Origin: Anaerovoracaceae bacterium
Lineage (GTDB): Bacteria; Bacillota; Clostridia; Peptostreptococcales; Anaerovoracaceae
Assembly: GCA_045545455.1 (NCBI GenBank)
Contig: JAZQAY010000120.1
Location: forward strand, 1,195 to 65,194
Reading direction: 5' to 3'
DNA: 64,000 bases
Translations under genes and position numbers: made by a program
In this document: piece after piece, positions 8,266 to 57,833 of the stretch
How positions within the stretch are numbered: the first letter of the stretch is position 1
Layout of the letters: every line of letters starts with the position of its first letter
Notes under the pieces: generated by a model
The model's database searches: none
What the model was told of the DNA's origin: nothing
What the model saw: only the letters and a program-made list of their open reading frames with translations

Positions 8266-8298
8266 GGTAATTTCACCTCCTGAGTATGTCGTTCCGAC

Positions 8299-8329: not shown

Positions 8330-8422
8330 GCACACTGACTCACAGTGATAAAGTCTCTATCAACCTGAACGGGACCATTCTCGTCAGGTGAGAAGCGGAT
8401 ACTTCTTCTTCGTTACTGAACT

Positions 8423-11288: not shown

Positions 11289-11297
11289 TTACAGATC

Positions 11298-11618: not shown

Positions 11619-11676
11619 AAGTCTCTCCTTATGATGACAAGCCCCCGGGACTCTCAGACCAAGGGGCTATAATAAG

Positions 11677-11748: not shown

Positions 11749-11756
11749 TCGTATTA

Positions 11757-12590: not shown

Positions 12591-12603
12591 AACCGACTCC
12601 TTT

Positions 12604-13449: not shown

Positions 13450-14534
13450 TTCAGCACCTCGTGCTCATCCTTTCCCCAATTGATGAATATTCCCCTGAAA
13501 TCGGACGCAGAGTCCTTATAGTCAGTCATGGTCTCCATGGAGCCCATGAAACATTTTCTGAAAGTGAGAGGCCCGGCATCCCTCATGATGTGCTCGCCCT
13601 CCTGAGTTATGACGCCGTTTGATTTTTTATAGTTCTCATAGGCGCAAAAGATCTTTTCCTGACCCTTTCCCGCAGTGTTCTCATCCCTGAATCCGCCGTA
13701 AAGAGTGACGTCCGTCAGTTCCTTAAGGAGGTTCATGCCAGAAGATTTAAGAACCGCTATGGGCGTCTGGCTGGGTATCCTGGCGTCGATCTCAAGGACC
13801 TTAAGGTCTTCCCCATCGTCGATCACTTCCACGTCCATTATTCCTTTGAGACCGACCAGTTCGGCCAGCCTCACCGCGATATCTGAAAATCTTCTCAGTT
13901 TTTCTTCGGGAAGTCTTACCGGAGAAGTGATCATATAGCAGTCGTATCCCTTGTCCACGTGGACTTCCGTCACGGTATAGGTCCTGTAGTTTCCCGGCCT
14001 TCCTATGACCTCGATGGAGTAAGAGGGTCCCTCCAGATACTCCTGGATGATATCTCCTTCTTTTTTCTCCTTAAGCGCCGCTTCCAGTTCATCCTCAGTA
14101 CATATTTTCTTTACTCCTGTGGATCCGGACCCGTCAGACGGTTTCATAACGTAGGGAAGTTTGCCTTCAGGATAATACCTGGGGCACGGTATACCGTTAT
14201 CCATGAACAGCCTGTCCGACTTTATCTTTGACTTTGTGATCTCATATGCGGCCGGATCGAAAGCGAGAGGCTTATGATACCTTTCTGCAAGTTCGCAGAT
14301 CTTGGCCAGAAGTTCATCGTTTTCGTTTGCAGGAAGTATGATGTCCGCCTCCCTGAAGGCTTCAAGTACGGCGGGGGCCTCATTCACCAGATCTCCCGGT
14401 ACGAACCCGTAAGCCAGCCCTCCCGCCGGAACTTCAGGATCTATATCTATCAGTATGCTTTTCATGCCGCAGGCTCCGGCTAGGTAGCATGCCTCCGTGC
14501 CCTGCAGCCTTCCTCCGATAATACAAATTTTCAT
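13413..14534 (-). CDS. pylC: 3-methylornithine--L-lysine ligase PylC (ATP-grasp)
   Basis: 373 aa with MKICIIGGRLQGTEACYLA and GIMDVEVI...LKVLEIDARIPSQTP. The ATG directly abuts the upstream stop (TAAATG). Confidence 0.9.
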   Translation of the reverse strand: MKICIIGGRLQGTEACYLAGACGMKSILIDIDPEVPAGGLAYGFVPGDLVNEAPAVLEAFREADIILPANENDELLAKICELAERYHKPLAFDPAAYEITKSKIKSDRLFMDNGIPCPRYYPEGKLPYVMKPSDGSGSTGVKKICTEDELEAALKEKKEGDIIQEYLEGPSYSIEVIGRPGNYRTYTVTEVHVDKGYDCYMITSPVRLPEEKLRRFSDIAVRLAELVGLKGIMDVEVIDDGEDLKVLEIDARIPSQTPIAVLKSSGMNLLKELTDVTLYGGFRDENTAGKGQEKIFCAYENYKKSNGVITQEGEHIMRDAGPLTFRKCFMGSMETMTDYKDSASDFRGIFINWGKDEHEVLKWRNTLLHSQKG

Positions 14535-16811
14535 TTAAAACCTCATGGCAAGCATGTATTTTTCCTGGAAGTCAGATCTGGTAGCAAGTTCTACATGTTC
14601 TATCGTTTCCGCAGCTTTTACGGTCTCACCGAAAGCGTCCTCTGAAAGGAGAGCCATGGAAGCACCGATACCTGCCGAGTTTCCGATCGAAAAGATCTTA
14701 TCCCTGTCTATATCGGGAATGAGACCGCAGTTTACGGCGGATTCCTTTCTGATGTATGAACCGAAGGCTCCCGCTATGGATACCTTTGCAAGATCATCTT
14801 TGGACATTCCGAGTTCGCTCATAAGCGTTTCCTCGCCCGCCTTGATGGCTGCCTTGGCAAGCTGGATCTCCCTCACGTCCTTTTGGGTTATCATTATGTC
14901 GTTTCCTTCAGGGTCCTTATACAGGGTGAGATAATATCCCTCTTCATTCTTGCCCACGCTGTCTATGATGGCCTGAGGAACGCCCTTCTTTAAGAGTTTT
15001 TCAGGAGGCAGAAGTTTTCCTGTCTTATCAACAACTCCGGTCCTGACCATCTCGCCTATGGCGTCGATTATACCTGAACCGCAGATGCCTGTGGGTTTAC
15101 AGTCTCCTATTACGCCTATCTTCACGCCCTCCTCCGAAAGGTCCACCCTTTCGATGGCTCCGGATGCCGCACGCATGCCCTGAGCGATCGAGCTTCCCTC
15201 AAATGCGGGTCCCGCAGCAGTTGAACATGTGGCTATCCTGCCGTTTCCGCTGAAGACGATCTCCCCGTTCGTTCCTATATCGATGAAGAGATGTCCCTTA
15301 TCCTTATCCAGGATATCCGTTGCTATAAGGCCTGCGGTAATGTCAGAACCAACATGGCCCGCGATGTTCGGAACAAGCTTGAGCTCTGCGTCATCGGCTC
15401 CCTTAAGGCCGAGTTCTGCAGCCTTCCTGAATACCGGTCCCTCAAACTGAGGTTTGAACGGCGATACAGCCAGACTTCTCGGATCCACCCCGAGAAAAAG
15501 ATGAGACATGGTGGTATTCCCTACCACGACGTACTTTCTGATGGCTGAAAAGTCGTAGGCCGATCCTTCGATGAAGCCCTCCACCGACTTATTGATGCCC
15601 TTTATCACGCTCTTGTGGAGAGCCTCCAGGCCCTTCTCGTTTTCCATGGTGTATTGGATCCTGGAAATGACGTCGGCCCCCCAGGTTCCCTGTGGATTGG
15701 TGAAGGCGTCGATATCCAGCATTTCTCCTGTCTCCAGATCCCAGAGCATAACTACTACGGTGGTCGTTCCTATATCCACGGATACTCCCAGGCACTCACC
15801 CCTGTCAGCCTTAAAGCCTTCAGGAAGCTTCACCAGTTTCTTTTTTCTCTTAGCGGTAGTCTCCACCTCAGGAACCGTTACAGTCATGCCGTCCTCAGGA
15901 GCAACTGCACAGGCAAGTTCATATTTTTCAACACCTATAGCAGTCCTTATCCTCACCCGGCATTTGAGGCAGGTACCCTTGCCTCCGCAGTTGCCGTCGA
16001 TGTTCACACCGACTTTGGAAGCGCACTCAAGGATGGAACCAAGGGCCTTCCCCTTATACTCTATGTTCATGGGCATGAATCTCATTGAGATCGTTTCGCC
16101 CTCTTGTTTTCTTCTCATATTTATCTCGCAGAAGTCACAGCCCTTGGAATTTCCCATGCATCTCATGCAGGCCGGCTCCTTCTCAAGTTCGTGATTCAGC
16201 ACAAAAAACAGTCCGGCACAACTCTTCTGCGGTATCATCATACCGCTGTCCCTGACCTTGACACCTATGGCGCCTGCGTCCAGGATCTTTTCGAATTCTC
16301 TGGTACGGCCTACGAACATGCCGTAATAACCGGGGCCGAACTCCTCGGACAGAATGACGTCCTTACCGGGGAAGCGTTCCTTCATGTCGGGGATCACGTA
16401 GTCCTCCCTCAGGGCTTCAATCCCGGAATCCACGTATGAATTCCCCCAGATATCCGCGAAGAGGAATTCCATGATCTTATCCTCAGACTCAAAGAGACAT
16501 TCTCCCACGGTCATCATGTAGATGTATATTCCCTCCACGTACTCAGGAGGGATCCTGGTGAAATAGTTGCAGTCCAGGACCGCGTCCTCAATGCAGATCT
16601 TACCGTCTCTGAAGGCTTCCGGGCCGACGAACCTCACCACCGATCTGATGTCGATACCTTCTACTCCGCTTTCTCTGGCCTTAAGACCTTCTGCAAGCAT
16701 CCTCTGATGTTTCCTGGAACCTCCCGGCACGATGCCGCAGGTATTGAGAAACCTCTTCTCAGCACCGGCATGCGCCCTCTCTTCACTTATTCTTATTACT
16801 TGATTCAGCAT
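14535..16811 (-). CDS. reductive activator of corrinoid enzymes (RamA/RACE-type: MetH-activation-like domain + 2Fe-2S ferredoxin + ASKHA ATPase)
   Basis: 758 aa with a 2Fe-2S motif (CGGKGTCLKCRV) and ASKHA phosphate motifs (VDIGTTTVV, IDIGTNGEI). The N-terminal ~230 aa resemble the B12-dependent methionine synthase activation domain. Confidence 0.7.
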   Translation of the reverse strand: MLNQVIRISEERAHAGAEKRFLNTCGIVPGGSRKHQRMLAEGLKARESGVEGIDIRSVVRFVGPEAFRDGKICIEDAVLDCNYFTRIPPEYVEGIYIYMMTVGECLFESEDKIMEFLFADIWGNSYVDSGIEALREDYVIPDMKERFPGKDVILSEEFGPGYYGMFVGRTREFEKILDAGAIGVKVRDSGMMIPQKSCAGLFFVLNHELEKEPACMRCMGNSKGCDFCEINMRRKQEGETISMRFMPMNIEYKGKALGSILECASKVGVNIDGNCGGKGTCLKCRVRIRTAIGVEKYELACAVAPEDGMTVTVPEVETTAKRKKKLVKLPEGFKADRGECLGVSVDIGTTTVVVMLWDLETGEMLDIDAFTNPQGTWGADVISRIQYTMENEKGLEALHKSVIKGINKSVEGFIEGSAYDFSAIRKYVVVGNTTMSHLFLGVDPRSLAVSPFKPQFEGPVFRKAAELGLKGADDAELKLVPNIAGHVGSDITAGLIATDILDKDKGHLFIDIGTNGEIVFSGNGRIATCSTAAGPAFEGSSIAQGMRAASGAIERVDLSEEGVKIGVIGDCKPTGICGSGIIDAIGEMVRTGVVDKTGKLLPPEKLLKKGVPQAIIDSVGKNEEGYYLTLYKDPEGNDIMITQKDVREIQLAKAAIKAGEETLMSELGMSKDDLAKVSIAGAFGSYIRKESAVNCGLIPDIDRDKIFSIGNSAGIGASMALLSEDAFGETVKAAETIEHVELATRSDFQEKYMLAMRF

Positions 16812-16836
16812 TTGTTTTTTATGTGTATTATTTAAG

Positions 16837-16961
16837 CAAAAGTATGTGATTCGGATATTCCACAGCGTCGGTACTTAGCGATTGCCAAGCTTTCAGCGCA
16901 GGCAGAGCTTAGTACCGTTACGCGAGGACAAAGTGCAAACGGTCCGAATCACATACTTTTG
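16837..16961. repeat. 125-nt long imperfect inverted repeat (19-bp perfect outer arms)
   Basis: CAAAAGTATGTGATTCGGA (16837-16855) pairs with TCCGAATCACATACTTTTG (16943-16961). The interior is again partly self-complementary (CGGTACTTAGC / GCTTAGTACCG). Confidence 0.7.
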
Positions 16962-16978
16962 ATTACCGGGAATGCACT

Positions 16979-17019
16979 TGAAAAACAAAGGGTGGTCCGT
17001 CTCCTTGACTTACCACCCT
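16979..17019 (-). terminator. intrinsic terminator after mtbB
   Basis: Minus strand reads AGGGTGGT-(15 nt)-ACCACCCT followed by TTGTTTTTC. Confidence 0.6.
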
Positions 17020-17074
17020 GTTGTTATAAAAGTTGGTTTGTTTCTGAATTCAGGTTAGTTCTAAGTCAGTTCTC

Positions 17075-18481
17075 TTATTTCAGTCCTGCCCTCTCCTTGA
17101 ACCTTTCAACGGAGTTGATCTTGATGTCGAGAACTTCAGCTATCCTGAACTTGGCTGCCATGCCGTTGTTTTCTTCTTTGCAAGGCTCTACGTGGCAAAG
17201 TCCAAGTCCCATATCTCTTCTGACATCGGACATTGTTACTACGTCGCATAATTCTGCAACGGTCACACCGAGCTTAGAAGCTACATACTCCTTCGCCTCG
17301 TCGATCTTCATCTTCTTGGCGAGCTGCATTCTGAGTACCAGGTCACCTGCCGTACGTACTCCTCCCATGCCAGCGCAGATAGCATGTGTAGCCTCCTGGC
17401 CCAAAGGATCACCTACGCCTACCTAGAAGCCGTCGATCTTACCCAGCTCGACGAGAGCTTTGTCAGCTCTTGACATTACGTCAACGGGCATGATCTCTAC
17501 CATCGGGATACCGCAAACACCCATACCTACGTCAGCGTGTACGGGGATGTTGGCTACCTTGGTGCAGGCCTGTACGAAAGTGATTACTCTGGCCATGTTC
17601 CATGCAAAGGATTTGTTGCAGTTGGTATTGACTACAAGTCCGAAAATTGAAGCTCCGGCCTGCTCAGCAAGCTTTACCTGATCATGAGGATAAAGGCCTG
17701 CGAGACGCTTGCCGTTGTATTTCAGCTTACCATGCATACCGAGAACGAATTCTCCTGCCATTCCGATCTCAACGGGGAAATCGGGATATTTGGTAGTGAT
17801 GGCTTCACAAGCTCTGAGAGCGGCCAGGAAGTCCGCATCACCTGCTGCTCCGCAGGTGTCAAGGTTCATTCCGTCAGCTCCTACGTCATAAGCCTGATCA
17901 GCTACATAGCAGATGTCCTTGATGGAATATTCAACTGCCTCCTCCTGTGCTTCAAGGGCTTCCTTGATGTGTCCGTCAGGAAGAAGTGTTGCCCAGTTGC
18001 CCGCGGGGCCATCCGGCTTGGTGTAGAATCCAAGGTCGGGCATGCCGCCGAAAAGCAGAGGCATAGTCGTAACGTTAAGGGCCTGCTTGAGAGCTCCCGC
18101 ATCACGCTTGGCAACTCCTTTAGCGGTCTTATAGTTGTAGTCGGTGTTTCCGATATCAACGGAATCGCATCCGAGACATCTCTCGTAGATAAGGGTCTCC
18201 ATTTCCTTAGGGAGAGGCATCTGAGACTTGACGTTGATCTTGTATCCGCCGGAGTCGTTGGTATTTACGATCTCTTTGCCGGGTTCAACGCCGACCACAC
18301 CGCCGGGCATGGTGATGATCTCATAGAGACGTTCGAAGTCTTCTTCGCTCATGGGGTCGATCTTACCGCGCTTGACGGCATCAGCCATGCCTTCACGCAT
18401 GTCTTGTCGGATCTCTTCCTCGGTCATGAAGACGATCGAACCATCACCCATTCGGCTTTGGTATTTCTTTTCTTCTGCCAT
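17075..18481 (-). CDS. mtbB: dimethylamine:corrinoid methyltransferase MtbB, Pyl-containing (in-frame UAG)
   Basis: Track ORFs 17423..18481 and 17075..17404 share one frame. They are separated only by TAG plus six sense codons (VGVGDP). The joined product is 468 aa. ...VELGKIDGF-[UAG]-VGVGDPLG...AGDLVLRM...EAKEYVA parallels methanogen MtbB around its Pyl. Confidence 0.9.
17423..17425 (-). other. in-frame amber (UAG) codon of mtbB, predicted pyrrolysine
   Basis: Plus-strand cta = minus-strand TAG. The reading frame is open on both sides. Confidence 0.85.
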
Positions 18482-18514
18482 ATCAACATTCCTTTCTTAA
18501 GATTTTTATAGAAA

Positions 18515-20002
18515 TTATCTCTTGGACGCTTTGAACTTAGCAAGCTCTTCAGCTTCTCTCTCGCCCTCTTCAACGATGTTGTGGATAGCTCTCTGGATAT
18601 CCTCAGGAAGGGGTTCGGGATGATAATTCTCTAAGATATCGATGGCTTTGGCATGGGCAGCTTCCGTCATGGTCATTGAACCCTTCTTCTCCCAGGTCTC
18701 TCTCTGCGTACGGTCGATATACCTGGTGGTGGAAAGTTCTTTTCTCATGTACTTCAGAGTATGTCTTGTAGCCAGATAGTTGTTGGCAGGACCTACCTCC
18801 TTGATAACGTCCAGTGCCAGTGTATCTTTGTTGACGGGGATACCGTATTCGAGTCTCCTTGACATCCTTGAGATCTCCGCGTCACAAAGCAACTGCTCAT
18901 AGCTCATTGTCATACCCATTTCCATCATTCCCATTCCGTAGATCAGGTTGGAGCCTGCAAGTGCGGGAACGACGTTTGTGATGGTCTTTTCATGTCCTAA
19001 CTGGACATCGAAACATTTGCTGTCCGCCTACGTGCCGCCTACGTTAGTAGGTATTCCGTAATAGTGTCCGATCTGGCCTACCGCAGCTGAACACATGGCG
19101 TGCTCAGGAGCGCCTACCGGAGACTGTGCGGTCTTCATATCCATTATGGTAGTGGATGTACCGTAAAGGATGGGGTTTCCGGGATTCAGAATCTGGGATA
19201 AAGTGATTCCGGAAAGGATCTCAGCATTGGTGCATACCAGCGTTCCTGCCATCGTGGCGGGAGTGGTCGCTCCGCAGAGTCCCATGGAAAGGATGTCGAT
19301 GGGAAGTCCGTACTTGGCTGAAAGCCTTATGATGGATGTCTCATTCTCATTCACTTCCAGAGGGCTGTTGGGGCAGGCACCCATGGTGATGATGGGTCTT
19401 TCTCTCAGCTTATCATATCCGCCCTGGATAAGGGCAGCCATGTCGATGAATCTCTGTGTGTTTTTGATACCTTCAAGGTCGTGAGCGAAGTTCTTGGTAA
19501 GGTTGTTGAGAACTACCTCAGCTTCGTGAAGGGATCTTACCTTCTGGTTTACGTCTCCTGCTGTAACTGCTATGGAGAAGCAGTTGATCTCAGGGATGGC
19601 GTCTACGAATCTTGCTACGTTTCCGAGGTCTTCCTTGGTGGATTCTCTCAGTTCTCCGGTATAGGGGTCAAAGATGAATACGCCTGTTCCGAAGTTCTTG
19701 TAGCATACTTTCTTACCTCCGAGAACGGTATCGTTCTTGGGATCTCTTCCGCAAAGCGTGATCTCTGCGGGAGTGGACTCGATGGCATCATTAACAAGGC
19801 CCTTGGGGAACCTTACTCTGTCATTTTCATAATCAACTTCACAGCCTGCGCCTTCTAATATTTCAAGCGCTTCCTTGCCGTGCATCTGTACGCCGAAGTC
19901 ATGCATGAGATCCAGAGTCGCTTCATGGATGGCATCGAGATCCTCATTGGTCAGAACATGATAACCGAGCATGTCGGTATCGTAAGTAAACTTCTTGCTC
20001 AT
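18515..20002 (-). CDS. mttB: trimethylamine:corrinoid methyltransferase MttB, Pyl-containing (in-frame UAG)
   Basis: Track ORFs 19028..20011 and 18515..18934 are in one frame. Between them lie TAG plus 31 sense codons (ADSKCFDVQLGHEKTITNVVPALAGSNLIYG). The joined product is 495 aa from the ATG at 20002 (AGGAG SD). Confidence 0.9.
19028..19030 (-). other. in-frame amber (UAG) codon of mttB, predicted pyrrolysine
   Basis: Plus-strand cta = minus-strand TAG in the context ...IPTNVGGT-[UAG]-ADSK... Confidence 0.85.
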
Positions 20003-20035
20003 ATGATTCACTCTCCTGTTCAGCTTTTTGGCTGT

Positions 20036-20683
20036 TTAGTTGTTTGCGATCCAGTCCATTATGAAGTTAACTGTATCAGATGCGTCTTCGCAGTACTGGT
20101 CTGCACCGATCTTATCTGCCCAGCGTCCTGTAACAGGAGCTCCGCCTACCATGGTCTTTACCTTGTCACGGATACCTGCTTCCTTGAGTGCTTCCTCGAT
20201 ATCCTTCTGAACTGTCATGGTGGTGGTAAGGAGTGCCGATGAACCAACGAAATCTGCGTTATGCTCGATAGCTGCGTCTACGAAGTTCTGAGCGGGAACT
20301 TCTCTTCCGAGGTCTACTACCTTGACGCCGTTTGTCTTGACAAGTGAAGCAACGATACCTTTTCCGATATCGTGAACGTCGCCTTCAACTGTTCCGATTA
20401 CCAGGGTACCCTTCTGCTGAACGTTGGACATATCCATCTTGCCCTCGATCTCTTCAGATACGGTCTTCATTACTTCGGTTGCAAAAATAAGTTCAGGAAG
20501 GAAGATCTCACCCATACCGAACTGATCTCCGAGTTCCTTCATGCCGGCGCTGTAGCCCTGTGTAAGCAGCTCGACCAGGTCAAGGCCTTCTTCTTCGGCC
20601 TCCTGGAGTGCTTCCATAGCCATATCCTCATCTGCTTCAATGATGGAATCTTTGGCTTTCTCGTAAATTGCTTCTTTAGCCAT
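20036..20683 (-). CDS. mttC: methylamine-type corrinoid (B12-binding) protein
   Basis: Start moved to MAKEAIYEK (GGAGGAAAATTT-ATG). It has the helical cap plus B12-binding Rossmann domain with the DxHxxG motif (GDVHDIGK). Confidence 0.85.
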   Translation of the reverse strand: MAKEAIYEKAKDSIIEADEDMAMEALQEAEEEGLDLVELLTQGYSAGMKELGDQFGMGEIFLPELIFATEVMKTVSEEIEGKMDMSNVQQKGTLVIGTVEGDVHDIGKGIVASLVKTNGVKVVDLGREVPAQNFVDAAIEHNADFVGSSALLTTTMTVQKDIEEALKEAGIRDKVKTMVGGAPVTGRWADKIGADQYCEDASDTVNFIMDWIANN

Positions 20684-21056
20684 AAATTTTCCTCCAAACA
20701 ATAATTTATATGCTTCTTTTCATCCGTGTAGTATTCCTAATATACTACGTTTATTATTATACAACTTTTGTGTCAAGCTTTGTACAGTATAAAAGGCGAT
20801 TAGTTTGCAATAGTTTTTCATTTTGTTGCCATCATGCACGTTTTAGTTATGCATATTTTGTATTAAAAAAACTGTATTCATAACTTATTTGCCAATGCGT
20901 CAAAAATGCCGGGCTTGTGCAAAATAGTTCAGTAAGATAGCAAACTAATTTTGATAATTGTTAAGGAAGAATCTATTGATTTATAGTAAAATATATACGT
21001 AGGTTTATATCGTTATATATCAACTATATTTAACTATAAGAAGAACAGGTGATTTT

Positions 21057-35352: not shown

Positions 35353-36024
35353 TTACTTCTTTTTTGATATCAGTTCGAGAGCCTTGGATACGGCGTCTCT
35401 GGCGGAATCCGAATAGCCGTCGGCTCCGATCTTCTCAGCCCAGCGCTGTGTCACAGGAGCTCCTCCCACCATGGTGATATAGTGCTCCCTGTCTCCGGTG
35501 TCTCTCAGATATTTCTCAAGTTTCTTCTGCTCCTGGATGGTGGTCGTAAGGAGTGCGCTGGTGCCTATGATATCAACGTTGAATTCCTTTGCAGCTGCAG
35601 CGATAGCCTCCACGGGAACCTCACACCCGAGATCTATCACCTCGAATCCTGCGCTCCTTAAGAATGCCGCCACGATACTCTTTCCGATGTCGTGTATATC
35701 TCCTGCCACTGTCGCCAGAAGTACCCTGCACTTATCTGAAGAGACCGCTCCTGCCTTCCCTGTCAGATCAAGCAGTCCGAAGGTCTCCTCTGTCACACTC
35801 TTCATTATCTCCGTGGCATAGATGAGTTCGGCTATGGATATCTTCTTTTTATCGAAGCTGTCCGCCACCGCTTCATTTCCTGCTCCGAATCCGTTCAGAA
35901 GAAGGTCCATCAGATCGGCTCCTTCATCCTTTGCTCTCTTCACGAGTTCAAGGGCCAGATCCTCGTCACCCTCTATTATGGAATTCTTTGCTTCTGAATA
36001 TAGTTTTTCGAATCTGTCTTCCAT
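35353..36024 (-). CDS. corrinoid (B12-binding) protein, second copy
   Basis: 223 aa with GDIHDIGK (DxHxxG). Same architecture as 20036..20683. Confidence 0.85.
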   Translation of the reverse strand: MEDRFEKLYSEAKNSIIEGDEDLALELVKRAKDEGADLMDLLLNGFGAGNEAVADSFDKKKISIAELIYATEIMKSVTEETFGLLDLTGKAGAVSSDKCRVLLATVAGDIHDIGKSIVAAFLRSAGFEVIDLGCEVPVEAIAAAAKEFNVDIIGTSALLTTTIQEQKKLEKYLRDTGDREHYITMVGGAPVTQRWAEKIGADGYSDSARDAVSKALELISKKK

Positions 36025-50036: not shown

Positions 50037-51254
50037 TCAGAAACCCATCGAGACCGGTGACACTATCACGCTTTTGACGGAATAATCTATTCCAGTCCTC
50101 TGCCTTCCCACAATGAAGTTCTTGTCCACACGTCTCTGGACTATGGAGCAGTTCTCCTTAGTGGTATTGACCAGAAGCACAAGGTACTGCCCCTTGCCGT
50201 ACTTAGCCACCGTATCACTGTGTCGGACGGAATGTACTATAGCATCCATCAGCCTGTCGGACAGTTCATCCAGTTTGGGCCCGTCCTTCATGGGGTTGCC
50301 TTTGCTGTCCACCACAGTGCACAGCATGATGAATATCCTGTCTTCCTGTCTGTCCATGGTCCTGGACAGTATCCTGTACACCTCCTGGAATACCGGATAG
50401 GAGCAGTAGTATCCTCCCCTCTTTTCGGGAAGTTTTTCTATGAGTTTATCCTGTATATCGTCCAGACTGTCGTGCTGATGTATGAGGCTGGCGGTAAGTC
50501 TGTTTGCCAGCTCCCTTACGTATGATGAGGTTCTCTCACCGAATTCCTGAACGTACAGGTCGATGGTGTCCTCGCAAAGCGACTGCGCGTCCTCGTATCT
50601 TCCCATTGCTGCCAGCGCCTCCACTATGAGCACTTCCCAGTCAGCAAACGGGTCGACGGATACCGCATAGTCGCCCAGGCTTTTAAGCTGCTTGTAATCC
50701 TTGATCTCTCTTATGAGATCAGCTGCCATGTTTACACACTCGTGAAACAGCGTCCTGAACTTTCTGGCTTCCTGCATGGCCCAGGGGCTGTTGTTGATGT
50801 TCTCCAGAAAGCTCCGCCTGTAGATGTGCACTGCACCCAGCAGCAGCTGAAGTTTCCTGTCCTGATCCGTTTCAGCGAGGGCTTCCTCGTGCATCCTCTG
50901 CATCTCATCCGTATCCAGGACGACCTCTATCTCAGGGGTCCAGTAATAGACTCCCCTGGATGCATCGATGTAGTTCACGTCCGGAAGGCCGGATGCCTTA
51001 AGACGTTTCTTTGCATTATATATTATGTTCCTTATAGCGTGCTGAACGTCGTCGATCTCCCTGTCCTCGAAGAGTATATCCTTCAGCTGGCTGCGGTTGG
51101 CGCCGCTTTTACCTGCATAGAGCACAGCTTCCATAAGTCCGCAGAACTGTGACCCCGACTGCCTGCCATCCACCAGTTCCTTACCGTCGAAAACTATAGA
51201 GAAGCCATCCAGCATCTTAACGTTCAAAACAGCTTTTTCAATGATCTTGCCCAT
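50037..51254 (-). CDS. SARP/BTAD-type regulator with C-terminal degenerate GGDEF-like domain
   Basis: 405 aa with an N-terminal winged helix plus a helical BTAD-like region. In the C-terminal ~130 aa the GGDEF position reads AKYGKGQYLVLL. Confidence 0.45.
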   Translation of the reverse strand: MGKIIEKAVLNVKMLDGFSIVFDGKELVDGRQSGSQFCGLMEAVLYAGKSGANRSQLKDILFEDREIDDVQHAIRNIIYNAKKRLKASGLPDVNYIDASRGVYYWTPEIEVVLDTDEMQRMHEEALAETDQDRKLQLLLGAVHIYRRSFLENINNSPWAMQEARKFRTLFHECVNMAADLIREIKDYKQLKSLGDYAVSVDPFADWEVLIVEALAAMGRYEDAQSLCEDTIDLYVQEFGERTSSYVRELANRLTASLIHQHDSLDDIQDKLIEKLPEKRGGYYCSYPVFQEVYRILSRTMDRQEDRIFIMLCTVVDSKGNPMKDGPKLDELSDRLMDAIVHSVRHSDTVAKYGKGQYLVLLVNTTKENCSIVQRRVDKNFIVGRQRTGIDYSVKSVIVSPVSMGF

Positions 51255-51278
51255 AAATCTGACTCCCGCCTTAAGCCC

Positions 51279-52334
51279 TTATCCGAGACGTTTCACCATA
51301 TTTTCGTAGTTTACACAGGAAAGAAGCGCAGTGTCTCTGGTTATCCTTCCTTCTTTATAAAGTTCCAGAAGATTGCCGTCCATGGTGCACATACCGTCCT
51401 GCGCACCTGCCTGCATGACGGATTCAAGCTGGTGAAGTTTGTTCTCTCTGATCATATTCTGTACAGCTACAGTTGACTTCATTACTTCAAATACCGGTAT
51501 AAGACCGCCGTCCACCGCAGGCACAAGCTGCTGACAAACTATTCCCTTCAGTATCTGTGCAAGCTGTATCTTGACCTGCTGCTGCTGATTGGCCGGGAAC
51601 ACGTCCAGTATCCTGTTTATGGTATTTGCCGCCCCGCTGGTGTGAAGGGTACTTAAGAGGAGCACTCCCGTCTCAGCCGCCGTCATGGCTGAAGAGATGG
51701 TGTCGTAGTCCCTCATCTCACCGAGAAGGATGACGTCAGGGCTTTCTCTTAAAGCCGATCTCAGCGATTCCAGATATCCCGGTGTGTCTATTGAGATCTC
51801 CCTCTGGGTCACTATGGCCTTATCATGCCTGTGGATATATTCTATGGGGTCCTCCATGGTGATCACGTGGCAGTCCCTGGACTTGTTGATCCTGTCGATC
51901 ATACAGGCCAGTGTGGTGGATTTACCGGTGCCGGCAGATCCCGTTATGAGCACCAGGCCCTTTTTGTTGTCCGCCATGGAAAGGACGTTTTCGGGTATGC
52001 CCAGATCCTTAGGATCAGGAATACCGAATCTAATGACCCTGATGACCGCAGCCAGCGAACCGCGCTGTCTGAAAACGTTCACCCTGAAACGCCCCATACC
52101 TGAGATGGTTATACTGAAATCATCATCGGCTCCCCTTTCAAGATTTGTCTTTTCGCGGCCGCCGATCCTGTAGATATCATCAACAAGTACCCTTATATCA
52201 TCCGGTAAGAGCCTTTCCATATCAAGCCTCTCCTGATGTCCGTTGCATTTGAACGTGATGGGAAGGCCGGCTATGATAAATATATCCGCAGCCTCCGCTT
52301 TCATTGCTTTTTCAAGTATTTCAGTTATTCCCAT
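51279..52334 (-). CDS. pilT: PilT-family type IV filament ATPase
   Basis: Start moved to MGITEILEK (AAGGAG SD). Has Walker A (GSAGTGKST), GEMRD and the PilT-type VQNMIRENK motif. Length is 351 aa. Confidence 0.75.
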   Translation of the reverse strand: MGITEILEKAMKAEAADIFIIAGLPITFKCNGHQERLDMERLLPDDIRVLVDDIYRIGGREKTNLERGADDDFSITISGMGRFRVNVFRQRGSLAAVIRVIRFGIPDPKDLGIPENVLSMADNKKGLVLITGSAGTGKSTTLACMIDRINKSRDCHVITMEDPIEYIHRHDKAIVTQREISIDTPGYLESLRSALRESPDVILLGEMRDYDTISSAMTAAETGVLLLSTLHTSGAANTINRILDVFPANQQQQVKIQLAQILKGIVCQQLVPAVDGGLIPVFEVMKSTVAVQNMIRENKLHQLESVMQAGAQDGMCTMDGNLLELYKEGRITRDTALLSCVNYENMVKRLG

Positions 52335-52345
52335 ATCGTTCTCCT

Positions 52346-52750
52346 TTAATCGTTTCCTGACCACAAGTTGCCTATCCTGGTATCCTGTACCCAGTCGTGC
52401 TCGTATTTCCACGATATTATTTCGTAGTCTCCGGACCCGTCAGTCCTTATTCCTATCCTGAGATTGAGATCTCCCTCTTTAAGGTCGGCAAAATACTCCC
52501 TGCCGTCCGTATCTGACACGCTGAATCCGGCCGGGACACCGCCTGAAGAAATGACCGCATCTGCTGATTCAAGCAGTTCCTGTCCTTTTATCTCCAGCGC
52601 GTACCTTTCAGATACCGTATCCGCATACTTCTCAGCAAGCCTCATATCCGCTCCGGCGGTAGTGTATGAAAGTATCGACATAATGGTGAGGCAGATGCTT
52701 ATCACCGTAAGAAGCAGCGCCAGAGGTCCGAGTTTAGGTGTATGGTTCAT
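52346..52750 (-). CDS. pilin-like small membrane-anchored protein 4 (non-canonical)
   Basis: 134 aa with one N-terminal hydrophobic helix followed by a beta-rich domain. ATGA overlap with the upstream gene. Confidence 0.4.
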   Translation of the reverse strand: MNHTPKLGPLALLLTVISICLTIMSILSYTTAGADMRLAEKYADTVSERYALEIKGQELLESADAVISSGGVPAGFSVSDTDGREYFADLKEGDLNLRIGIRTDGSGDYEIISWKYEHDWVQDTRIGNLWSGND

Positions 52751-53199
52751 GACCTCACCTCCTTCAGATATACAGCCGTATCCAGCGAATAGACCGGTTC
52801 ATCAGATCCGTCGAGTCTCACGCTCACCTTGTTTCTTACAAGGCCTTCGCCGTCCCCTCCTTCAGGTTCCCAGCTTATCTCAAGTATGTATTTACCGTCC
52901 TTATCCGGCGAAAGATCTTCATCGTATCTCGCTTCCACCTTAAAAACGTCGCCTTCAACTATCCTGGCGTTGTCCTCTTCGTTAAGCCATCCGTATAGTT
53001 CGTCACCGTCGGAAGAAGCTGAAGCCATCTCGCAGGCGTTCTGTGCCAAAGTGACCGAACCTGTCAGAGCTTCGGCTTCACCGCTCTTGACTATGCCTGC
53101 ACCGAATAAGTTGGTGAGTACCAGAATGATGCAGATAAAGACGGCGATCAGAAGCAGGGCCTCTAAATAGAAGGCTGTGATGTGGTTTCTGCTCTTCAT
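52747..53199 (-). CDS. pilin-like small membrane-anchored protein 3 (non-canonical)
   Basis: 150 aa starting MKSRNHITAFYLEALLLIAVF, with a Glu in the hydrophobic helix but no G-F-T-L-x-E motif. ATGA overlaps on both sides. Confidence 0.4.
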   Translation of the reverse strand: MKSRNHITAFYLEALLLIAVFICIILVLTNLFGAGIVKSGEAEALTGSVTLAQNACEMASASSDGDELYGWLNEEDNARIVEGDVFKVEARYDEDLSPDKDGKYILEISWEPEGGDGEGLVRNKVSVRLDGSDEPVYSLDTAVYLKEVRS

Positions 53200-53663
53200 G
53201 CTCCATCACCCTCCCCGCTTCTTATCCTGACGAAGACGCTGCCCTCGTCCGTATAGACCCTCAGCACGTCCTTTTCAGGCATTTCTATCTCGAAAATATC
53301 CGTTTCTCCTATGACCTGCGCGTTAGCAGGATCCGGTGCGGAATTCTCCTTTCCGAACTCTTCCAGCACTTTTCCGTTATCGCTGTATATCTTAAGCGCA
53401 TAACCCGTGCTGCCGTCGGATATCACAAGCATCGGTCCTGAAGACGAATCCGTGACCCTGACGGACCCTTCAGTGTCGTTATCCTTTATACTTGTCTGTA
53501 TATATGCCAGCACAGCCCTTTCGTCCCTGTTGTCGTTTCTGATCCCTACAGTTCCCTGATAGACCTTCGCCCCGAAGACCACAAGCATGAAGAAGCCGGC
53601 CAGGAAAAGCCCGACTATGGCTATGGTGTACAGGCTCATGTGGTTTCTGTTTCCATTTTTCAT
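53196..53663 (-). CDS. pilin-like small membrane-anchored protein 2 (non-canonical)
   Basis: 155 aa starting MKNGNRNHMSLYTIAIVGLFLAGFF. It shares the RNH(M/I)(S/T) N-terminal motif with protein 3. Confidence 0.4.
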   Translation of the reverse strand: MKNGNRNHMSLYTIAIVGLFLAGFFMLVVFGAKVYQGTVGIRNDNRDERAVLAYIQTSIKDNDTEGSVRVTDSSSGPMLVISDGSTGYALKIYSDNGKVLEEFGKENSAPDPANAQVIGETDIFEIEMPEKDVLRVYTDEGSVFVRIRSGEGDGA

Positions 53664-53995
53664 GATCCCGCCTCCTCTCCGTGATGTCTCGGAGTCACTA
53701 TGACTGTGGGAGGCATGTTGGAAGCAAATACGTCATAGGTGACGTAGAAATCCTCCGTGTTTATCTGAAGGCCGTAGTTGTTCTCCAGATACTCCAGATC
53801 AGGCGGATAAACGCCCTCCACCGCATAACATTGTAGCGCTTCCCTTTCAACGGTCTGCTGTATCGCCAGAGCGCTCTCATCTCCTATGTCCCTTCCTGAA
53901 TCCCTGAAGATCCAGAAAACAAGGAGAACGAGCAGTATCAGGATCAGAGCTGCCAGGATCTTTATTGAATTTTTGCTCCTGATATCAGAATACAT
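53660..53995 (-). CDS. pilin-like small membrane-anchored protein 1 (non-canonical)
   Basis: 111 aa with an N-terminal TM helix followed by ...ALQCYAVEGVYPPDLEYLENNYGL... Confidence 0.4.
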   Translation of the reverse strand: MYSDIRSKNSIKILAALILILLVLLVFWIFRDSGRDIGDESALAIQQTVEREALQCYAVEGVYPPDLEYLENNYGLQINTEDFYVTYDVFASNMPPTVIVTPRHHGEEAGS

Positions 53996-54012
53996 CTGAA
54001 TTCTCCTTTAGA

Positions 54013-55059
54013 TCATCCTATGGAATTCATCATACCTATCAATGGGAGCATGACGCTTAAGAGCGACAGTCCCACAGTGATCATCAGCACACCTGAAAGC
54101 AGCGGGTCCACTATACCCACCAGTCTGTCCACCTGACTCGTACAGTTCTCTTCCAGAAGTTCTGTCAGCCTTTCAAGTATGGACTCCATATTACCGCTTC
54201 TTTCTCCGGCCAGGAACATCCTGCCGTAGACGGGTTCAAACAGTTCCTGGTCATATGCTGCCTGAGCTATGCTGTGGCCTTCCTCCATTTCAGCCATGCA
54301 TTTCTCAAGTTTAGCTTCTATGCTCTTGCAGTCAGTCATGGGAACGCTCTCCTGTACTGCCTTATCCTGCATCTCACCGCTTGCGATGAAAGTGCTTAAG
54401 GCAGAGGTGAACCTGTACATCCCCATGCTCTCCAGGATAGACCTTGTTATGGGGATCCTGTTAAGCAGTTTCTCCACCGGTCCGCGCTTCCCGTTCTTCC
54501 ACATAACGTATCCTATGATCAGCACGCAGGCTATGATCACCATGGCTATGAGTGCGATCCAGCAAAATACGTATGCCCACCTTATGTAGCTGTATGAGGA
54601 TGCAGCCAGACTTCCTGTCAGGCTGTTATATACGTCTGTAAAGGAAGGCAGCACCATGGTGAGCATCGCCAGAAGGACCACGATTATAAGCACCAGCATG
54701 GCTGCAGGATAGGTCACCGCATTCCTGATCTTTTCGGATATGGTCTTCTGTTCCTTGTAGTACTTTGAAAGCCTGAAAAGTATGCCCTCGAGTTTTCCGG
54801 AATTAACGCCGGCCTCAACCATCTGGCAGGCATATTCCGGAAAGATGCCGGCTTCCCTCATGGCCTTGCCGAGGCTCATTCCCATATCGACCTGTTCCTT
54901 CATTATATCCAGACCGGAAGCGAGTACGCCTCCGCTGTTTCTGCTGTCACTCTGAAGAAGCCCTATAGCTTCATCCGTCTGTATTCCGGAGCGCATCATC
55001 ATGGCCATGCTTTCAAAGAAAGCGCTGACACCCAGATAGTCAAGCTTTTTATTGTTCAT
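54013..55059 (-). CDS. GspF/PilC-family platform protein
   Basis: Start moved to MNNKKLDYL (GGAAGGAG SD). It has two T2SSF repeats (..MVEAGVNSGKLEGILFRL.. and ..FLAGERSGNMESILERL..) and 3 TM segments. Confidence 0.75.
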   Translation of the reverse strand: MNNKKLDYLGVSAFFESMAMMMRSGIQTDEAIGLLQSDSRNSGGVLASGLDIMKEQVDMGMSLGKAMREAGIFPEYACQMVEAGVNSGKLEGILFRLSKYYKEQKTISEKIRNAVTYPAAMLVLIIVVLLAMLTMVLPSFTDVYNSLTGSLAASSYSYIRWAYVFCWIALIAMVIIACVLIIGYVMWKNGKRGPVEKLLNRIPITRSILESMGMYRFTSALSTFIASGEMQDKAVQESVPMTDCKSIEAKLEKCMAEMEEGHSIAQAAYDQELFEPVYGRMFLAGERSGNMESILERLTELLEENCTSQVDRLVGIVDPLLSGVLMITVGLSLLSVMLPLIGMMNSIG

Positions 55060-55075
55060 TTTAAAGCTCCTTCCC

Positions 55076-56056
55076 TTAGTAATAATATACGTCTGCGTAG
55101 TTCTCACCGTTACCGATGAAAGAACTGTCCGCACCGTTTGCCGAAAACGTCACGTCCATACGGTTCCAGGTGTTCCCCGTGACCTCATACTTCACCGTGA
55201 CCCATCCTGTCTCTTCCGTATAGAACATGTTCCAGGCATGATAGATGTCGTTTGGCGACACGTATCCGAATACCATCTTTACAGGTATCCCCTGACTTCT
55301 CATCATGGCTGCTGCCAGAGCCGCATAGTCGATGCATATCCCTTTTCCGGTCTTAAGTGTCTCATCGGGATCCGGCAGATATCCTGACTGGATGTTTTCT
55401 GCCTTCGGATGATCGTATTTTACCTTCTTGCAGATATAATCGAATATCGACGATACGACTCCCAGGGCATCTTCTTCCTTTGATGCCAGTTCCTGAGCCT
55501 TTACGACGCAGTCCGATCCGGTATTGTAGTTCACGTAATCACTGGGGCGCAGGAATGGCTGGAATTCGTCATCCAGTACAGCTTCCCCGTCTATGGAGTA
55601 CATGCAGGCATATTTAGTACCTTCTATATTCTCCATGACCCTGAAGGTATACACGCCATTACCGCTCTGAACGGGAAAGATAGAAGGCGTCCCGTCTGAG
55701 CTGAGATCATAGTTGTACGTCGTGTCTCCCTTTATGACCTGGAATTTCAGCCTTTTTTCAGAAGTAGCCGAGGCACCGACGTAACCCTTGGAAAGGGATG
55801 ATATGTCTATATACGCCTGGCCGTCCGTGTAGGAAGCTTCCCCGTTAAAAACGGAGTCGTTGAACTCAGGCGCGACATATGGCACGAAGCTTTCTTCAGC
55901 GCTTTCCTGAGTCTCCTCCTGAGACTGATCTTCCTGGTCCTGTGATCCCGGAACTCCCTGAGAGTCACCGCAGCCGGTGAAACTCAGCATTATCAAAAGC
56001 ATGCACAGGAGCAAAACTGTAAGCCGGCCTGCGCATCGTTTTATCTTTTGATACAT
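55076..56056 (-). CDS. transglutaminase-like lipoprotein
   Basis: 326 aa with a lipobox (LSFTGC) and an acidic low-complexity linker. The transglutaminase core reads GKGICIDYAAL...HAWN...RMD (Cys-His-Asp). Confidence 0.7.
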   Translation of the reverse strand: MYQKIKRCAGRLTVLLLCMLLIMLSFTGCGDSQGVPGSQDQEDQSQEETQESAEESFVPYVAPEFNDSVFNGEASYTDGQAYIDISSLSKGYVGASATSEKRLKFQVIKGDTTYNYDLSSDGTPSIFPVQSGNGVYTFRVMENIEGTKYACMYSIDGEAVLDDEFQPFLRPSDYVNYNTGSDCVVKAQELASKEEDALGVVSSIFDYICKKVKYDHPKAENIQSGYLPDPDETLKTGKGICIDYAALAAAMMRSQGIPVKMVFGYVSPNDIYHAWNMFYTEETGWVTVKYEVTGNTWNRMDVTFSANGADSSFIGNGENYADVYYY

Positions 56057-56104
56057 TTCAGTTTCCTTGGTTTCTGTTTATATTATTTCGGTTATTATCA
56101 TCAT

Positions 56105-56494
56105 TTACCCGGCGAAGCTTTTAAGCTCATCGTATTTCCCGAGTATGCGGCCCATCAGCTCGCTGTAGTCCGTTTCTGTCCTGGCTCTGAGAAGTTCTGT
56201 GATCTCGCATAATGGTTCGTATAAGGGATCAAGAGAAAGGTTCCCCGTAGTTCCCTTAAGCGCGTGTGCTGCCTCAAAAGCCTGATCCAGGTCGTTATTT
56301 TCGATGGCTGCCCTGAGTTTTTCCACGTTGGCATCCTCAACAGCCATGCATACCAGACGAAGATAAAAATCCTCTTTATTCATGCATCTTTCAAGACCTT
56401 TATCTGTATCTGCACCAAAAGTCCTGAGAGCTTCCATTGTGATCATATCCTGTACCTCCCCGTCATATCCTGAATAATTTCCGTCATTTACCAT
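56105..56494 (-). CDS. Hpt (histidine phosphotransfer) domain protein
   Basis: 129 aa with the HALKGTTGNLSL motif. Coordinates are taken from the ORF track. Confidence 0.6.
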   Translation of the reverse strand: MVNDGNYSGYDGEVQDMITMEALRTFGADTDKGLERCMNKEDFYLRLVCMAVEDANVEKLRAAIENNDLDQAFEAAHALKGTTGNLSLDPLYEPLCEITELLRARTETDYSELMGRILGKYDELKSFAG

Positions 56495-57833
56495 AAAAGC
56501 CGAAGCTGTCTCTTCCCGCTTCCTTTACGTCATATAAGGCGCTGTCGGCGTTCCTGTACAGTTCCTCTCCATCTGAAGCGTCCTCGGAGAAAGCGATCCC
56601 CATACTCAGTGTGAATCCCGGTATTCCATCCTTGTCGTCTCTTACAGCAGATCTTATCTTACCGGCTTTGAATGAGATAAGATCCGTCATGGATTTATTG
56701 GCATTGACCATAAATACCGCGAACTCATCTCCTCCTATCCTGCAGACGTAGTCGTCAGATCTGAAGGTCCCGAGAAGGGTATCCGCCAGGCGTTTAAGCA
56801 CCTTGTCACCCATCTCATGTCCGTAGTTATCGTTAAACGTCTTGAAATGATCCAGATCTATGAGTATGAGTGCGGAATCTCCGTCGCCCATGGCATCCTT
56901 CACGTCCTCAAACACACCGCGGTTGAACAATCCTGTCAGCGGGTCGTGGTTGGCCTCGTATGATAGCTGTTCCTGATAGTTCTTTGTTTTTTCAAAGATA
57001 TGGTTATATGTCCTGGCAAGGTACTGCATCTCATATGAGCCTTCCTCTGGTATCAGCTGGTTGTCCCTTATGAAGCTGACGCTCTTCCGGAGCGGTTGTA
57101 TTATCAGCCTGCTGATCAGGATAACTATGGCCAGCACTATTATCACCAGGAAAATAATGAGAACGTATTGCCTGTTGATAGCTCGTGAAAGTCTCTCTGA
57201 ATTCTGGCTGCTTTCAGCTGACAATTCGCCGAGAAGTGACTCAAGGCAGGCGGTTACCTCTCTTTCGATGGCAGCTTTCTTGTCCTGATATGCTTCACCG
57301 AATACCAGTTCTCTCGCCCTGTCTATCTTATCATCGGGAGAAAGAGCCAGCATTTCGTCCGTGAGTTCCTGTTCCTGGATCTCACGCGGCGCCTGGGAGA
57401 TATCTCCTCCATGGGCAAGCATCACCAGTTTCATGGCTATATATTCTGTCTCCATCAGTTCATTGGACTCCTTCAGCGCCCGCTCAAGTGCTGAATACGC
57501 TTCGGTTCCTCCGAAGTATTCTCCCATTTCCTCAAGCGCCCTGTCTCTCCTTCTGGTATGCCTTGACTCATTGAAATAGTTTGTCATATCATCGGGATTC
57601 CCGGTAACGACATAGCTTCGTACCTGGAGCGTGAGGTAGTCCGATCCTTCCTGCATGGTGTCCGCGCTGTTCTGGCACATCAAAAACCTGTCCATAGATT
57701 CCTGCATCGAATTATATGACGTTCTTGTCTCGAACAGTGCAAACAGAAGGACTATGGAAAGTGTTATCGCCATCAGGAGCATGGCAATGTTCAGCGGCTG
57801 AAGACGGATGTTTCTTTTTTCTTTTCCGATCAT
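56484..57833 (-). CDS. membrane-anchored diguanylate cyclase (GGDEF)
   Basis: 449 aa with two TM segments flanking a helical sensor region. The C-terminal domain reads ...DLDHFKTFNDNYGH..GD..L...RIGGDEFAVFM. Confidence 0.85.
   Translation of the reverse strand: MIGKEKRNIRLQPLNIAMLLMAITLSIVLLFALFETRTSYNSMQESMDRFLMCQNSADTMQEGSDYLTLQVRSYVVTGNPDDMTNYFNESRHTRRRDRALEEMGEYFGGTEAYSALERALKESNELMETEYIAMKLVMLAHGGDISQAPREIQEQELTDEMLALSPDDKIDRARELVFGEAYQDKKAAIEREVTACLESLLGELSAESSQNSERLSRAINRQYVLIIFLVIIVLAIVILISRLIIQPLRKSVSFIRDNQLIPEEGSYEMQYLARTYNHIFEKTKNYQEQLSYEANHDPLTGLFNRGVFEDVKDAMGDGDSALILIDLDHFKTFNDNYGHEMGDKVLKRLADTLLGTFRSDDYVCRIGGDEFAVFMVNANKSMTDLISFKAGKIRSAVRDDKDGIPGFTLSMGIAFSEDASDGEELYRNADSALYDVKEAGRDSFGFYGK

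Follow-up and report, generated by a model that had tools for sequence, protein, structure and literature searches.

A conserved gene cassette of gut Clostridia with a PilT-clade ATPase as its only ATPase: a candidate divergent member of the type IV filament superfamily

How might a filament machine work without a linked assembly ATPase? This puzzle is posed by a gene block on the minus strand of a 64,000-nucleotide stretch of DNA from an Anaerovoracaceae bacterium (assembly GCA_045545455.1, contig JAZQAY010000120.1; the whole 64-kb stretch is referred to below as the window). Ten tightly packed genes lie across positions 50037-57833 and encode, in minus-strand order, a GGDEF diguanylate cyclase, an Hpt phosphotransfer protein, a transglutaminase-fold lipoprotein (Tg), a platform of the GspF/PilC type (F), a series of four small proteins anchored at their N-termini (s1-s4), an ATPase of the PilT family (T) and a SARP-type regulator (B). 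An initial annotation of the sequence had listed this order, and all ten genes were found in place, with clear Pfam and NCBIfam assignments for all except s1, s3 and s4. In textbook accounts of type IV pili (T4P), PilT-family ATPases serve as the motors of disassembly. The analysis presented here gives a probability of roughly 0.5 to the reading that the core Tg-F-s1-s2-s3-s4-T forms one functional unit, a divergent monoderm member, of the pseudopilus type, of the superfamily of type IV filaments (TFF).

The ATPase, the platform and the conserved core

T is encoded at 51279-52334 (minus strand, 351 residues; Pfam T2SSE, E 4e-38). It scored 403 bits against the curated hidden Markov model TIGR01420, above the cut-off of 319, and remained below the cut-offs of the other equivalogs: 124 bits for ComGA (NF041000, cut-off 300), 103 for GspE (630), 99 for PilB (676) and 39 for TadA (373). 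In comparison with PDB sequences, the top relatives were all PilT or PilU proteins (333 bits for Aquifex PilT, 2gsz; E 2e-98 for PilT structures), with PilB at 82 bits and GspE at ~80 bits. The curated scores and the PDB ranking together rule out T as an assembly ATPase of the ComGA, PilB, GspE or TadA type. The sequence AVQNMIRENK occupies residues 290-299 of T; the family consensus is AIQNMIRE, the counterpart of the PilT signature AIRNLIRE, and this motif is kept in 53 cassette ATPases together with the Walker A motif, the Asp box, the Walker B box and the His box. The initial annotation had allowed that T might cluster with the assembly ATPases of a described system. This is not so: in a neighbour-joining tree with outgroups from a representative library (clustered at 50% identity) and E. 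coli K-12, rooted on GspE and HofB, the cassette ATPases were monophyletic within the PilT family in 83 of 100 bootstraps. They are 66-97% identical to one another (median 79%), far above the conservation of s1-s4, and the closest full-length outsiders in the representative library reach at most 57% identity to them. A homology search with T returned only near-identical cassette ATPases (at least 80% identity). On these comparisons T is a true PilT-clade protein with a subclade of its own; its NCBI label reads 'PilT/PilU family type 4a pilus ATPase'. As a separate observation, the top bit scores to T in the representative library belong to P0174-P0180, proteins of 700-1000 residues with two tandem PilT-like modules.

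The platform gene F (54013-55059, minus strand) encodes a two-domain inner-membrane protein of 348 residues that matches Pfam T2SSF (E 4e-36) in two stretches. It scored 182 bits against GspF (cut-off 424) and 124 bits against ComGB (cut-off 240), and because both cut-offs were missed, F is an equivalog of neither. All open reading frames (ORFs) of the window of at least 50 residues were searched by phmmer with E. coli K-12 GspC, GspE, GspF, GspG, GspH, GspI, GspJ, GspK, GspL, GspM, GspO, HofB, HofC, PpdD and YggR. The ATPase queries matched T alone, YggR at 3e-68 versus ~1e-22 for GspE and HofB, and the platform queries matched F alone (HofC, 1e-25). The same search found no prepilin peptidase, canonical pilin, secretin or GspL/M-like protein in the window; neither matches to GspC, GspL or GspM nor a secretin-sized gene were present. 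Thus the statements of the initial annotation that a PilT-type protein is the only ATPase, and that an assembly ATPase, a prepilin peptidase, a recognisable pilin and secretin or alignment proteins are absent from the window, were confirmed. The mismatch that it had noted with the Com, Tad and classical clostridial T4P layouts was likewise borne out, and the block does not fit the layout of the type II secretion system (T2SS) either; all relevant NCBIfam equivalog cut-offs were missed.

Related loci were collected in two scans. One genome per species was searched with the s2 alignment, which gave 54 loci whose genes were labelled with phmmer; a metagenome scan with the s1 alignment detected at least 515 relatives, and 80 loci were retrieved, 21 of them at least 9 kb long. 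These scans supplied the ~75 related loci referred to below. The order Tg-F-s1-s2-s3-s4-T was found in every sufficiently long locus of the 54 species genomes and in all 21 long metagenome loci, and six metagenome contigs with s2 homologues share it. Since the same order recurs throughout both sets, the arrangement exceeds chance by far. Conservation across Clostridia, which the initial annotation had proposed as a check, holds for these seven genes among gut and rumen lineages. B follows T in ~60% of loci of the 54-genome set, an Hpt gene adjoins the cassette in about half of loci, on either side, and a GGDEF cyclase lies near it in some loci only, at varying positions. The conserved core is the seven genes Tg-F-s1-s2-s3-s4-T, with GGDEF, Hpt and BTAD genes as satellites that vary between loci. 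The carriers, mostly from ruminant and other gut sources, include Oscillospiraceae, Lachnospiraceae, Neglectibacter, Acetatifactor, Parasporobacterium, Ca. Limivicinus and the mouse isolates D16-50 (RAZA01) and D16-76 (QZEE01); the Neglectibacter carriers include sp. X58 (QWEO01). Across loci the small proteins s1-s4 are merely ~40-50% identical.

A functionless remnant of a Com or T4P operon has to be considered at this point, since lost prepilin motifs and a lost assembly ATPase could look like decay. The reading frames are intact, however, over 75 loci from several families have the same gene order, the ATPases are 66-97% identical among carriers with all catalytic motifs, and the catalytic triad of Tg is invariant. 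This conservation effectively refutes decay.

The block is bracketed by housekeeping genes, with ppdK, glyS, recO and era upstream, so it is not cut off by the edge of the window; a small exporter and a sigma-54 activator follow downstream. The initial annotation had considered that the block might be a fragment of a standard T4P or Com locus whose missing parts lie just outside. Such parts just beyond the block are ruled out by the housekeeping flanks and by the absence of any TFF gene in the 50 kb of window downstream, and the ~75 related loci likewise lack them. No second T2SSE-type ATPase was found within ~8-10 kb of these loci, and no GspO-like or A24 peptidase was found, by GspO phmmer and motif scan, in the window or over the same distance around them. 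Among ~5400 ORFs of 60 loci, none has the canonical N-terminus G[FMILV][ST]..E. The flanks covered amount to ~1.1 Mb, i.e. only ~0.4 genome-equivalents, so the absence of linked PilB and PilD is uninformative on their absence from the genome as a whole.

Assembly may accordingly be supplied from elsewhere in the genome. In such an arrangement, the cassette would be an accessory module of a canonical T4P or Com system, contributing an ATPase for retraction, a second choice of platform, proteins that resemble minor pilins and act in priming or at the tip, and an associated extracellular enzyme, while PilB or ComGA assembles, PilD or ComC processes, and the major pilin is encoded at another locus. 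This is a possible explanation, albeit one held at well under even odds. T retains the AIRNLIRE-type motif associated with retraction, which fits it; so do the facts that PilT genes are often unlinked from pilB and pilD and that prepilin peptidases are common to several systems (PMC6668835). On the other hand, a full-length platform of its own would be needless for a pure retraction or minor-pilin module, and linkage to pilB, pilD or a canonical pilin was seen in none of the ~75 loci.

More distant variants keep the logic of the cassette. In L071, whose ATPase is ~57% identical, the order is BTAD-sortase-Tg-F-s1-s2 (uncalled)-s3-s4-T, with T fused to a further domain, x, described below; the sortase gene (L071:5610-6362) lies inside the cassette. 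L069 and L070 have s2-, s3- and s4-like genes alone, then T, then a large repeat-rich surface protein, and in L067 the end of an s4-like gene precedes T. The large secreted protein that follows the ATPase in L069 (L069:11285-12973) has long terminal P-D-Q-P-[ST]-N repeats and a wall-spanning-like appearance. The sister or nearest outgroup of the cassette ATPases in the neighbour-joining tree, P0185 (L064:10001-11044), is a lone PilT-like gene among glycosyltransferase, Wzy_C-like, PDZ and VWA protein genes; the surrounding 10 kb contain neither a platform gene nor a pilin-like one.

The small proteins s1-s4

The four small genes lie between F and T on the minus strand: s1 (53660-53995, 111 residues, no Pfam match), s2 (53196-53663, 155 residues, Pfam DUF4860 at E 2.6e-14), s3 (52747-53199, 150 residues, without family match) and s4 (52346-52750, 134 residues, without family match in Pfam or NCBIfam). 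Their N-terminal logos were derived from 53-58 homologues per protein. s1 begins with an invariant M-Y-[S/T]-D and a basic stretch, the cytoplasmic tip, followed by a transmembrane helix of variable sequence and a strongly conserved ectodomain (ALQCYVVEGVYPPDLxYLxxNYGLxxN..DFYV.Y..FASNLPP). Among 15 E. coli Gsp/Hof proteins, the s1 profile scored best against GspG. A search with GspG found s1 of locus L049 at E 0.0023 among ~6000 ORFs, in register over GspG residues 4-74 and including the motif A-L-x-x-Y-x-x-[DE]-x-x-Y-P.

The N-termini of s2-s4 are pilin-like in that they comprise short basic leaders, a small putative -1 residue and strongly conserved hydrophobic helices. s2 has a basic leader of ~10 residues, a putative -1 residue that is G, A or S in 52 of 54 homologues, and a helix, GIAALFLAGFFLLVVFGA, with the logo [L/F]-Y-T-I-G-I-A-A-L-F-L-A-G-F-F-L-L-V, in which Glu is absent. 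Its AlphaFold 2 model (mean predicted local distance difference test, pLDDT, 78) consists of a helix at residues 8-62 followed by eight strands; nothing in the PDB was significantly similar by Foldseek, the highest probabilities being those of XcpW (0.82, template-modelling (TM) score 0.49), of EpsJ and of one chain from the XcpGHIJK model. s3 has a K/R-rich leader and the logo H-I-T-[A/G/S]-F-Y-x-E-T-L-L-L, in which Thr, Phe, Tyr and Glu do not vary. Among the four proteins s3 alone carries the pilin-type Glu, at +4 from Phe or at +5 if cleavage were to occur after Thr. The s3 model (pLDDT 88) has a single helix at residues 2-61 and then a five-stranded sheet; again no Foldseek match was significant, and the highest probability was obtained for EpsI (2ret; 0.80-0.87, target-normalised TM score 0.63-0.65, E 0.16-0.34). 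By hhalign, s3 matched E. coli GspI at E 1e-3 and a probability of 20%, in an alignment that starts at the N-terminus and pairs the Glu residues. The gene for s4 always lies between s3 and T. Its logo reads M-K-Q-V-P-K-L-G and then P-L-A-L-L-L-T-V-I-S-I-C, with Gly in 52 of 53 homologues, an invariant Pro and no Glu, and hhalign detects a weak similarity to s3 (E 0.0026).

The shared architecture and several individually weak signals that point the same way are the grounds for reading s1-s4 as pseudopilins. They weakly suggest that s1 is GspG/ComGC-like, s2 GspJ-like and s3 GspI-like, and that the N-terminus of s4 is GspK/ComGG-like. The initial annotation had described four small, anchored proteins; their N-terminal anchoring stood, and the description may be refined from anonymous anchors to pseudopilin-like proteins. 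Its suggestion of an undescribed TFF-superfamily machine was partly supported. With a T2SSE-type ATPase and a platform the locus belongs to that superfamily, and no paper was found in the literature library searched that mentions DUF4860 or describes the cassette arrangement, so that the cassette is apparently undescribed; the class III pilin signal, however, was not found.

A number of observations weigh against a pseudopilus-type filament machine. The test for a class III signal failed: Glu occurs only in s3, at +4, and is absent from s1, s2 and s4, and s4 has Pro at +1. s1 has no G-1/F+1/E+5 signal, nor a leader or a small -1 residue, and the sequence of its transmembrane helix is not conserved. 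In the distant variants s3 keeps F-x-x-E, preceded by Leu or Pro at the putative -1 position, which counts against an obligatory prepilin-peptidase site. None of s1-s4 matches an N_methyl or pilin family in Pfam or NCBIfam, the s1, s2 and s3 profiles gave only chance-level matches to PDB sequences, the hhalign and HMMER pilin signals are weak, and all Foldseek E-values for s2 and s3 exceed 0.08 (0.16 or above for EpsI, EpsJ and XcpW). A transmembrane helix, a long helix and a β-domain are also the layout of PilN/PilO/GspM-type proteins. As for the motor, we know of no precedent for an assembly role of a PilT-type ATPase, and the AIRNLIRE-type motif that T retains is tied to retraction.

The same termini bear on the accessory module introduced above. 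s2, s3 and s4 resemble minor pseudopilins more than a major pilin, and the putative -1 residue is G, A or S in more than 95% of the close family, as would fit a peptidase cleaving in trans. The absence of E5 from three of the four proteins, the Pro at +1 of s4 and the Leu or Pro at -1 of distant s3 proteins depart from the usual needs of prepilin peptidases and of filament packing, and the GspG-like ectodomain means that the main subunit could be s1.

Statistical support for the pilin assignment is weak, and with it comes the thought that no filament is made at all. T and F would then be a co-opted ATPase and platform, with s1-s4 as four bitopic membrane proteins in a static, PilN/PilO/GspLM-like scaffold that spans the envelope or serves alignment, and the complex would drive another c-di-GMP (cyclic di-GMP)-controlled envelope process such as export or placement of an adhesin or polysaccharide, or wall remodelling by Tg. 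A variable transmembrane helix in s1 is what would be expected of an anchor rather than of a filament core; P0185, in its glycosyltransferase/Wzy_C/VWA locus without a platform, shows that this PilT subgroup is in use outside classical pili; and in 13 loci there are sortase and adhesin genes next to the cassette or inside it. Yet the hydrophobic helices of s2-s4 are among the best-conserved parts of these proteins, which is typical of pilin α1-N packing and not of simple anchors, and the helix of s3 contains an invariant Glu. The top-probability fold neighbours are pseudopilins and not PilO or GspM, and hhalign against GspL, GspM and GspC matched the transmembrane segment only. A non-filament complex is accordingly considered improbable, well behind the accessory module.

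Enzyme, regulators and proposed mechanism

Tg (55076-56056, minus strand; Pfam Transglut_core, E 2.5e-24) is the first gene of the core and is predicted to encode an extracytoplasmic lipoprotein enzyme. The residues of its papain-like triad, Cys241, His273 and Asp301, are invariant in 54 of 54 homologues, and an L-x-G-C lipobox is present in ~40 of the 54, including the window protein. Its sole PDB relative is 3isr, an uncharacterised putative cysteine protease.

B (50037-51254, minus strand) consists of an N-terminal region, a BTAD domain (E 6.5e-9) and a C-terminal degenerate GGDEF domain, whose Pfam match falls below the cut-off. The C-terminus aligned with the GGDEF domain of the window's own cyclase by hhalign with a probability of 80% (E 1.4e-5), placing RHSD on the I-site RSDD and GKGQY on GGDEF, with RxxD at the canonical spacing of five residues upstream. 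Both RxxD and G[K/R]GQ[Y/F] are invariant in 30 of 30 B homologues. Because the I-site is retained and the GGDEF motif is degenerate, B is a plausible candidate for a c-di-GMP-sensing SARP-type activator of the degenerate-GGDEF I-site type. The membrane-bound diguanylate cyclase (56484-57833, minus strand; Pfam GGDEF, E 1e-35) has an N-terminal transmembrane/sensor region and an active-looking GGDEF domain, with RIGGDEF and an RSDD I-site. Between it and Tg lies the Hpt phosphotransfer gene (56105-56494, minus strand; Pfam Hpt, E 2.7e-9), with an HALKG histidine motif; given homologues of 112-113 residues, its true start is probably at 56446.

A further protein, x, is not encoded in the window. 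It is a cytosolic protein of 165 residues that follows B in 28 cassette loci (e.g. L022:12294-12797) and has the invariant motif R-x-N-S-x-x-Q-G...W...F-x-S. No Pfam relative was found, and a PDB profile search gave chance-level matches only. Despite an N-x-S-x-x-G-like motif, x was rejected as a PilZ domain, as a conserved RxxxR is lacking and Pfam PilZ did not match even at E 10. In the distant variant L071 (11060-11521) the ATPase carries the x domain fused at its C-terminal end, and this fusion suggests that x acts on T.

The ten genes of the block are separated by 11-48 nucleotides, with 4-nucleotide overlaps at s1/s2, s2/s3 and s3/s4. A ppdK terminator, a hairpin with a T-run, lies upstream at 57973-57957, and no comparable minus-strand terminator was found between it and the end of B. 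Since the gaps are short or overlapping and an internal terminator was not found, the ten genes could form one transcript. In 12 loci, among them L032, L033, L043, L048, L052 and L054, genes for sortase, MucBP, DUF5979 (Cna-B-like) and S26 signal-peptidase proteins lie directly upstream of the cassette, over 1-7 kb. These neighbours hint at a cell-surface or adhesion theme and a link to sortase-dependent proteins.

The sequences show which genes are present, the families they belong to, that their linkage is invariant and that catalytic and motif residues are conserved; from this a mechanism for a divergent pseudopilus may be inferred. A hexamer of the PilT-clade ATPase T would dock on the cytoplasmic domains of the platform F, and ATP-driven rotation of the platform would move subunits of pilin shape from the membrane to a short stalk or back. 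s3 (GspI-like), s2 (GspJ-like) and s4 (with its GspK/ComGG-like N-terminus) would probably form a tip or priming complex, and s1, with its GspG/ComGC-like ectodomain, would most likely be the repeating or base subunit. The stalk would extend into or through the thick cell wall. Tethered to the membrane, Tg may act on the outside, where it would locally remodel, cross-link or process the wall or a partner at the surface. c-di-GMP would control expression via the neighbouring cyclase and B and, where x is present, probably also motor activity. The likely role in gut Clostridia is one at the surface, in adhesion or in the envelope, under the control of c-di-GMP.

Two further sets of observations concern the window as a whole. 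Rfam searches at gathering thresholds detected no c-di-GMP riboswitch; the only matches in the window were PYLIS elements and a ribosomal protein L20 leader (RF00558; 8294-8416, minus strand), an ordinary one upstream of an infC-like gene (7744-8343). The PYLIS elements, one of mtbB type (17326-17425) and one of mttB type (18931-19030), are embedded in amber-interrupted genes for methylamine methyltransferases and belong to a complete pyrrolysine system, notable for a gut or rumen Clostridia genome, at 10308-20701 (minus strand) and also at 35353-36024. It includes tRNA-Pyl (CUA) at 11677-11750, pylB-, pylD-, pylS- and pylC-like genes at 10308-14534, and a RamA-like activase (14535-16811) with corrinoid proteins. 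The gene block was also considered as an anti-phage defence system and rejected: PADLOC gave no meaningful match, with generic P-loop matches for T only.

Comparison with known systems

For a generic TFF system to be detected, the model of Denise et al. needs a major pilin that can be recognised as well as an ATPase and a platform (PMC6668835). Because that rule demands a recognisable major pilin, the cassette escapes it, and since it escapes current TFF detection rules, filament-type machines may be under-counted in the abundant, little-studied Firmicutes of gut and rumen. In addition, DUF4860 and three unannotated protein families gain a context, and c-di-GMP signalling in Oscillospiraceae and Lachnospiraceae would be tied to a concrete apparatus of the envelope, one with a possible bearing on adhesion or colonisation. 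A stronger claim, that a PilT-clade ATPase as sole motor (assembling or bidirectional), a peptidase-free pseudopilus, the Tg enzyme and c-di-GMP gating together make a new TFF class, is tentative and is rated clearly below the reading of the core as a divergent pseudopilus-type unit; the class would be genuinely new only if autonomy from PilB and PilD holds. The cassette offers a natural test of whether the direction of a motor is fixed by the clade of its ATPase or set by its partners. PilT-independent retraction and overlapping functions of PilB and PilT have been discussed (PMC6668835).

In relation to PilT and PilU of type IVa pili, T is ~50% identical to the crystallised PilT proteins, and has the same length and two-domain layout; its AIRNLIRE-type motif is kept, as are both Walker motifs (A and B) and the His box. 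It differs from them as the sole ATPase of an operon with its own platform and pilin-like genes and without linked PilB; its subclade is separate, and in a distant variant it bears the C-terminal regulatory x domain. Tad/Flp systems, with CpaF/TadA, provide the precedent for a single ATPase that powers extension and retraction (PMC6668835). A study of the Tad motor CpaF reportedly found that one bifunctional ATPase does both (PMC12019362), and, going by the title of a study of the V. cholerae MSHA pilus (PMC9815625), PilT is said to promote both extension and retraction. Unlike Tad, the cassette has an ATPase of another clade (39 bits against the TadA cut-off of 373) and a single GspF-type platform in place of a TadB/TadC pair, with neither TadV nor a Flp pilin; the N-terminal logos contain no Flp-like G....EY protein.

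The likeness to the T2SS pseudopilus (GspG-H-I-J-K with GspE and GspF) lies in the combination of a platform, an ATPase and a graded set of pseudopilins. The best, albeit weak, neighbours are GspI/EpsI for s3, GspJ/XcpW for s2 and GspG for s1, and the idea of a short, piston-like stalk is shared. In contrast to the T2SS, the cassette lacks a secretin, GspC, GspL, GspM and GspE, its platform misses the GspF cut-off, its host is monoderm, and the N-termini of its small proteins are non-canonical.

Like the Com operon (comGA-comGG, with ComC), the cassette is found in a monoderm host and unites in one operon a platform of the GspF type, a single ATPase of the T2SSE type and pilin-like proteins, four or five in number and 100-150 residues long, with neither a secretin nor PilMNO. 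The ectodomain motif of s1 is ComGC/GspG-like, and s4 lacks Glu, as do ComGG and GspK. The ATPase of the cassette, however, is of the PilT clade and not ComGA, its gene comes last and not first, and the platform falls under the ComGB cut-off. The G|FT.xE prepilin signal, a linked peptidase and nearby comE or comF are missing, whereas a transglutaminase-fold lipoprotein is the obligatory first gene and c-di-GMP regulators are attached. By its sequence features the cassette fails membership of the Com, T2SS, Tad and classical T4P systems, yet in its predicted working it is most like Com or the T2SS pseudopilus.

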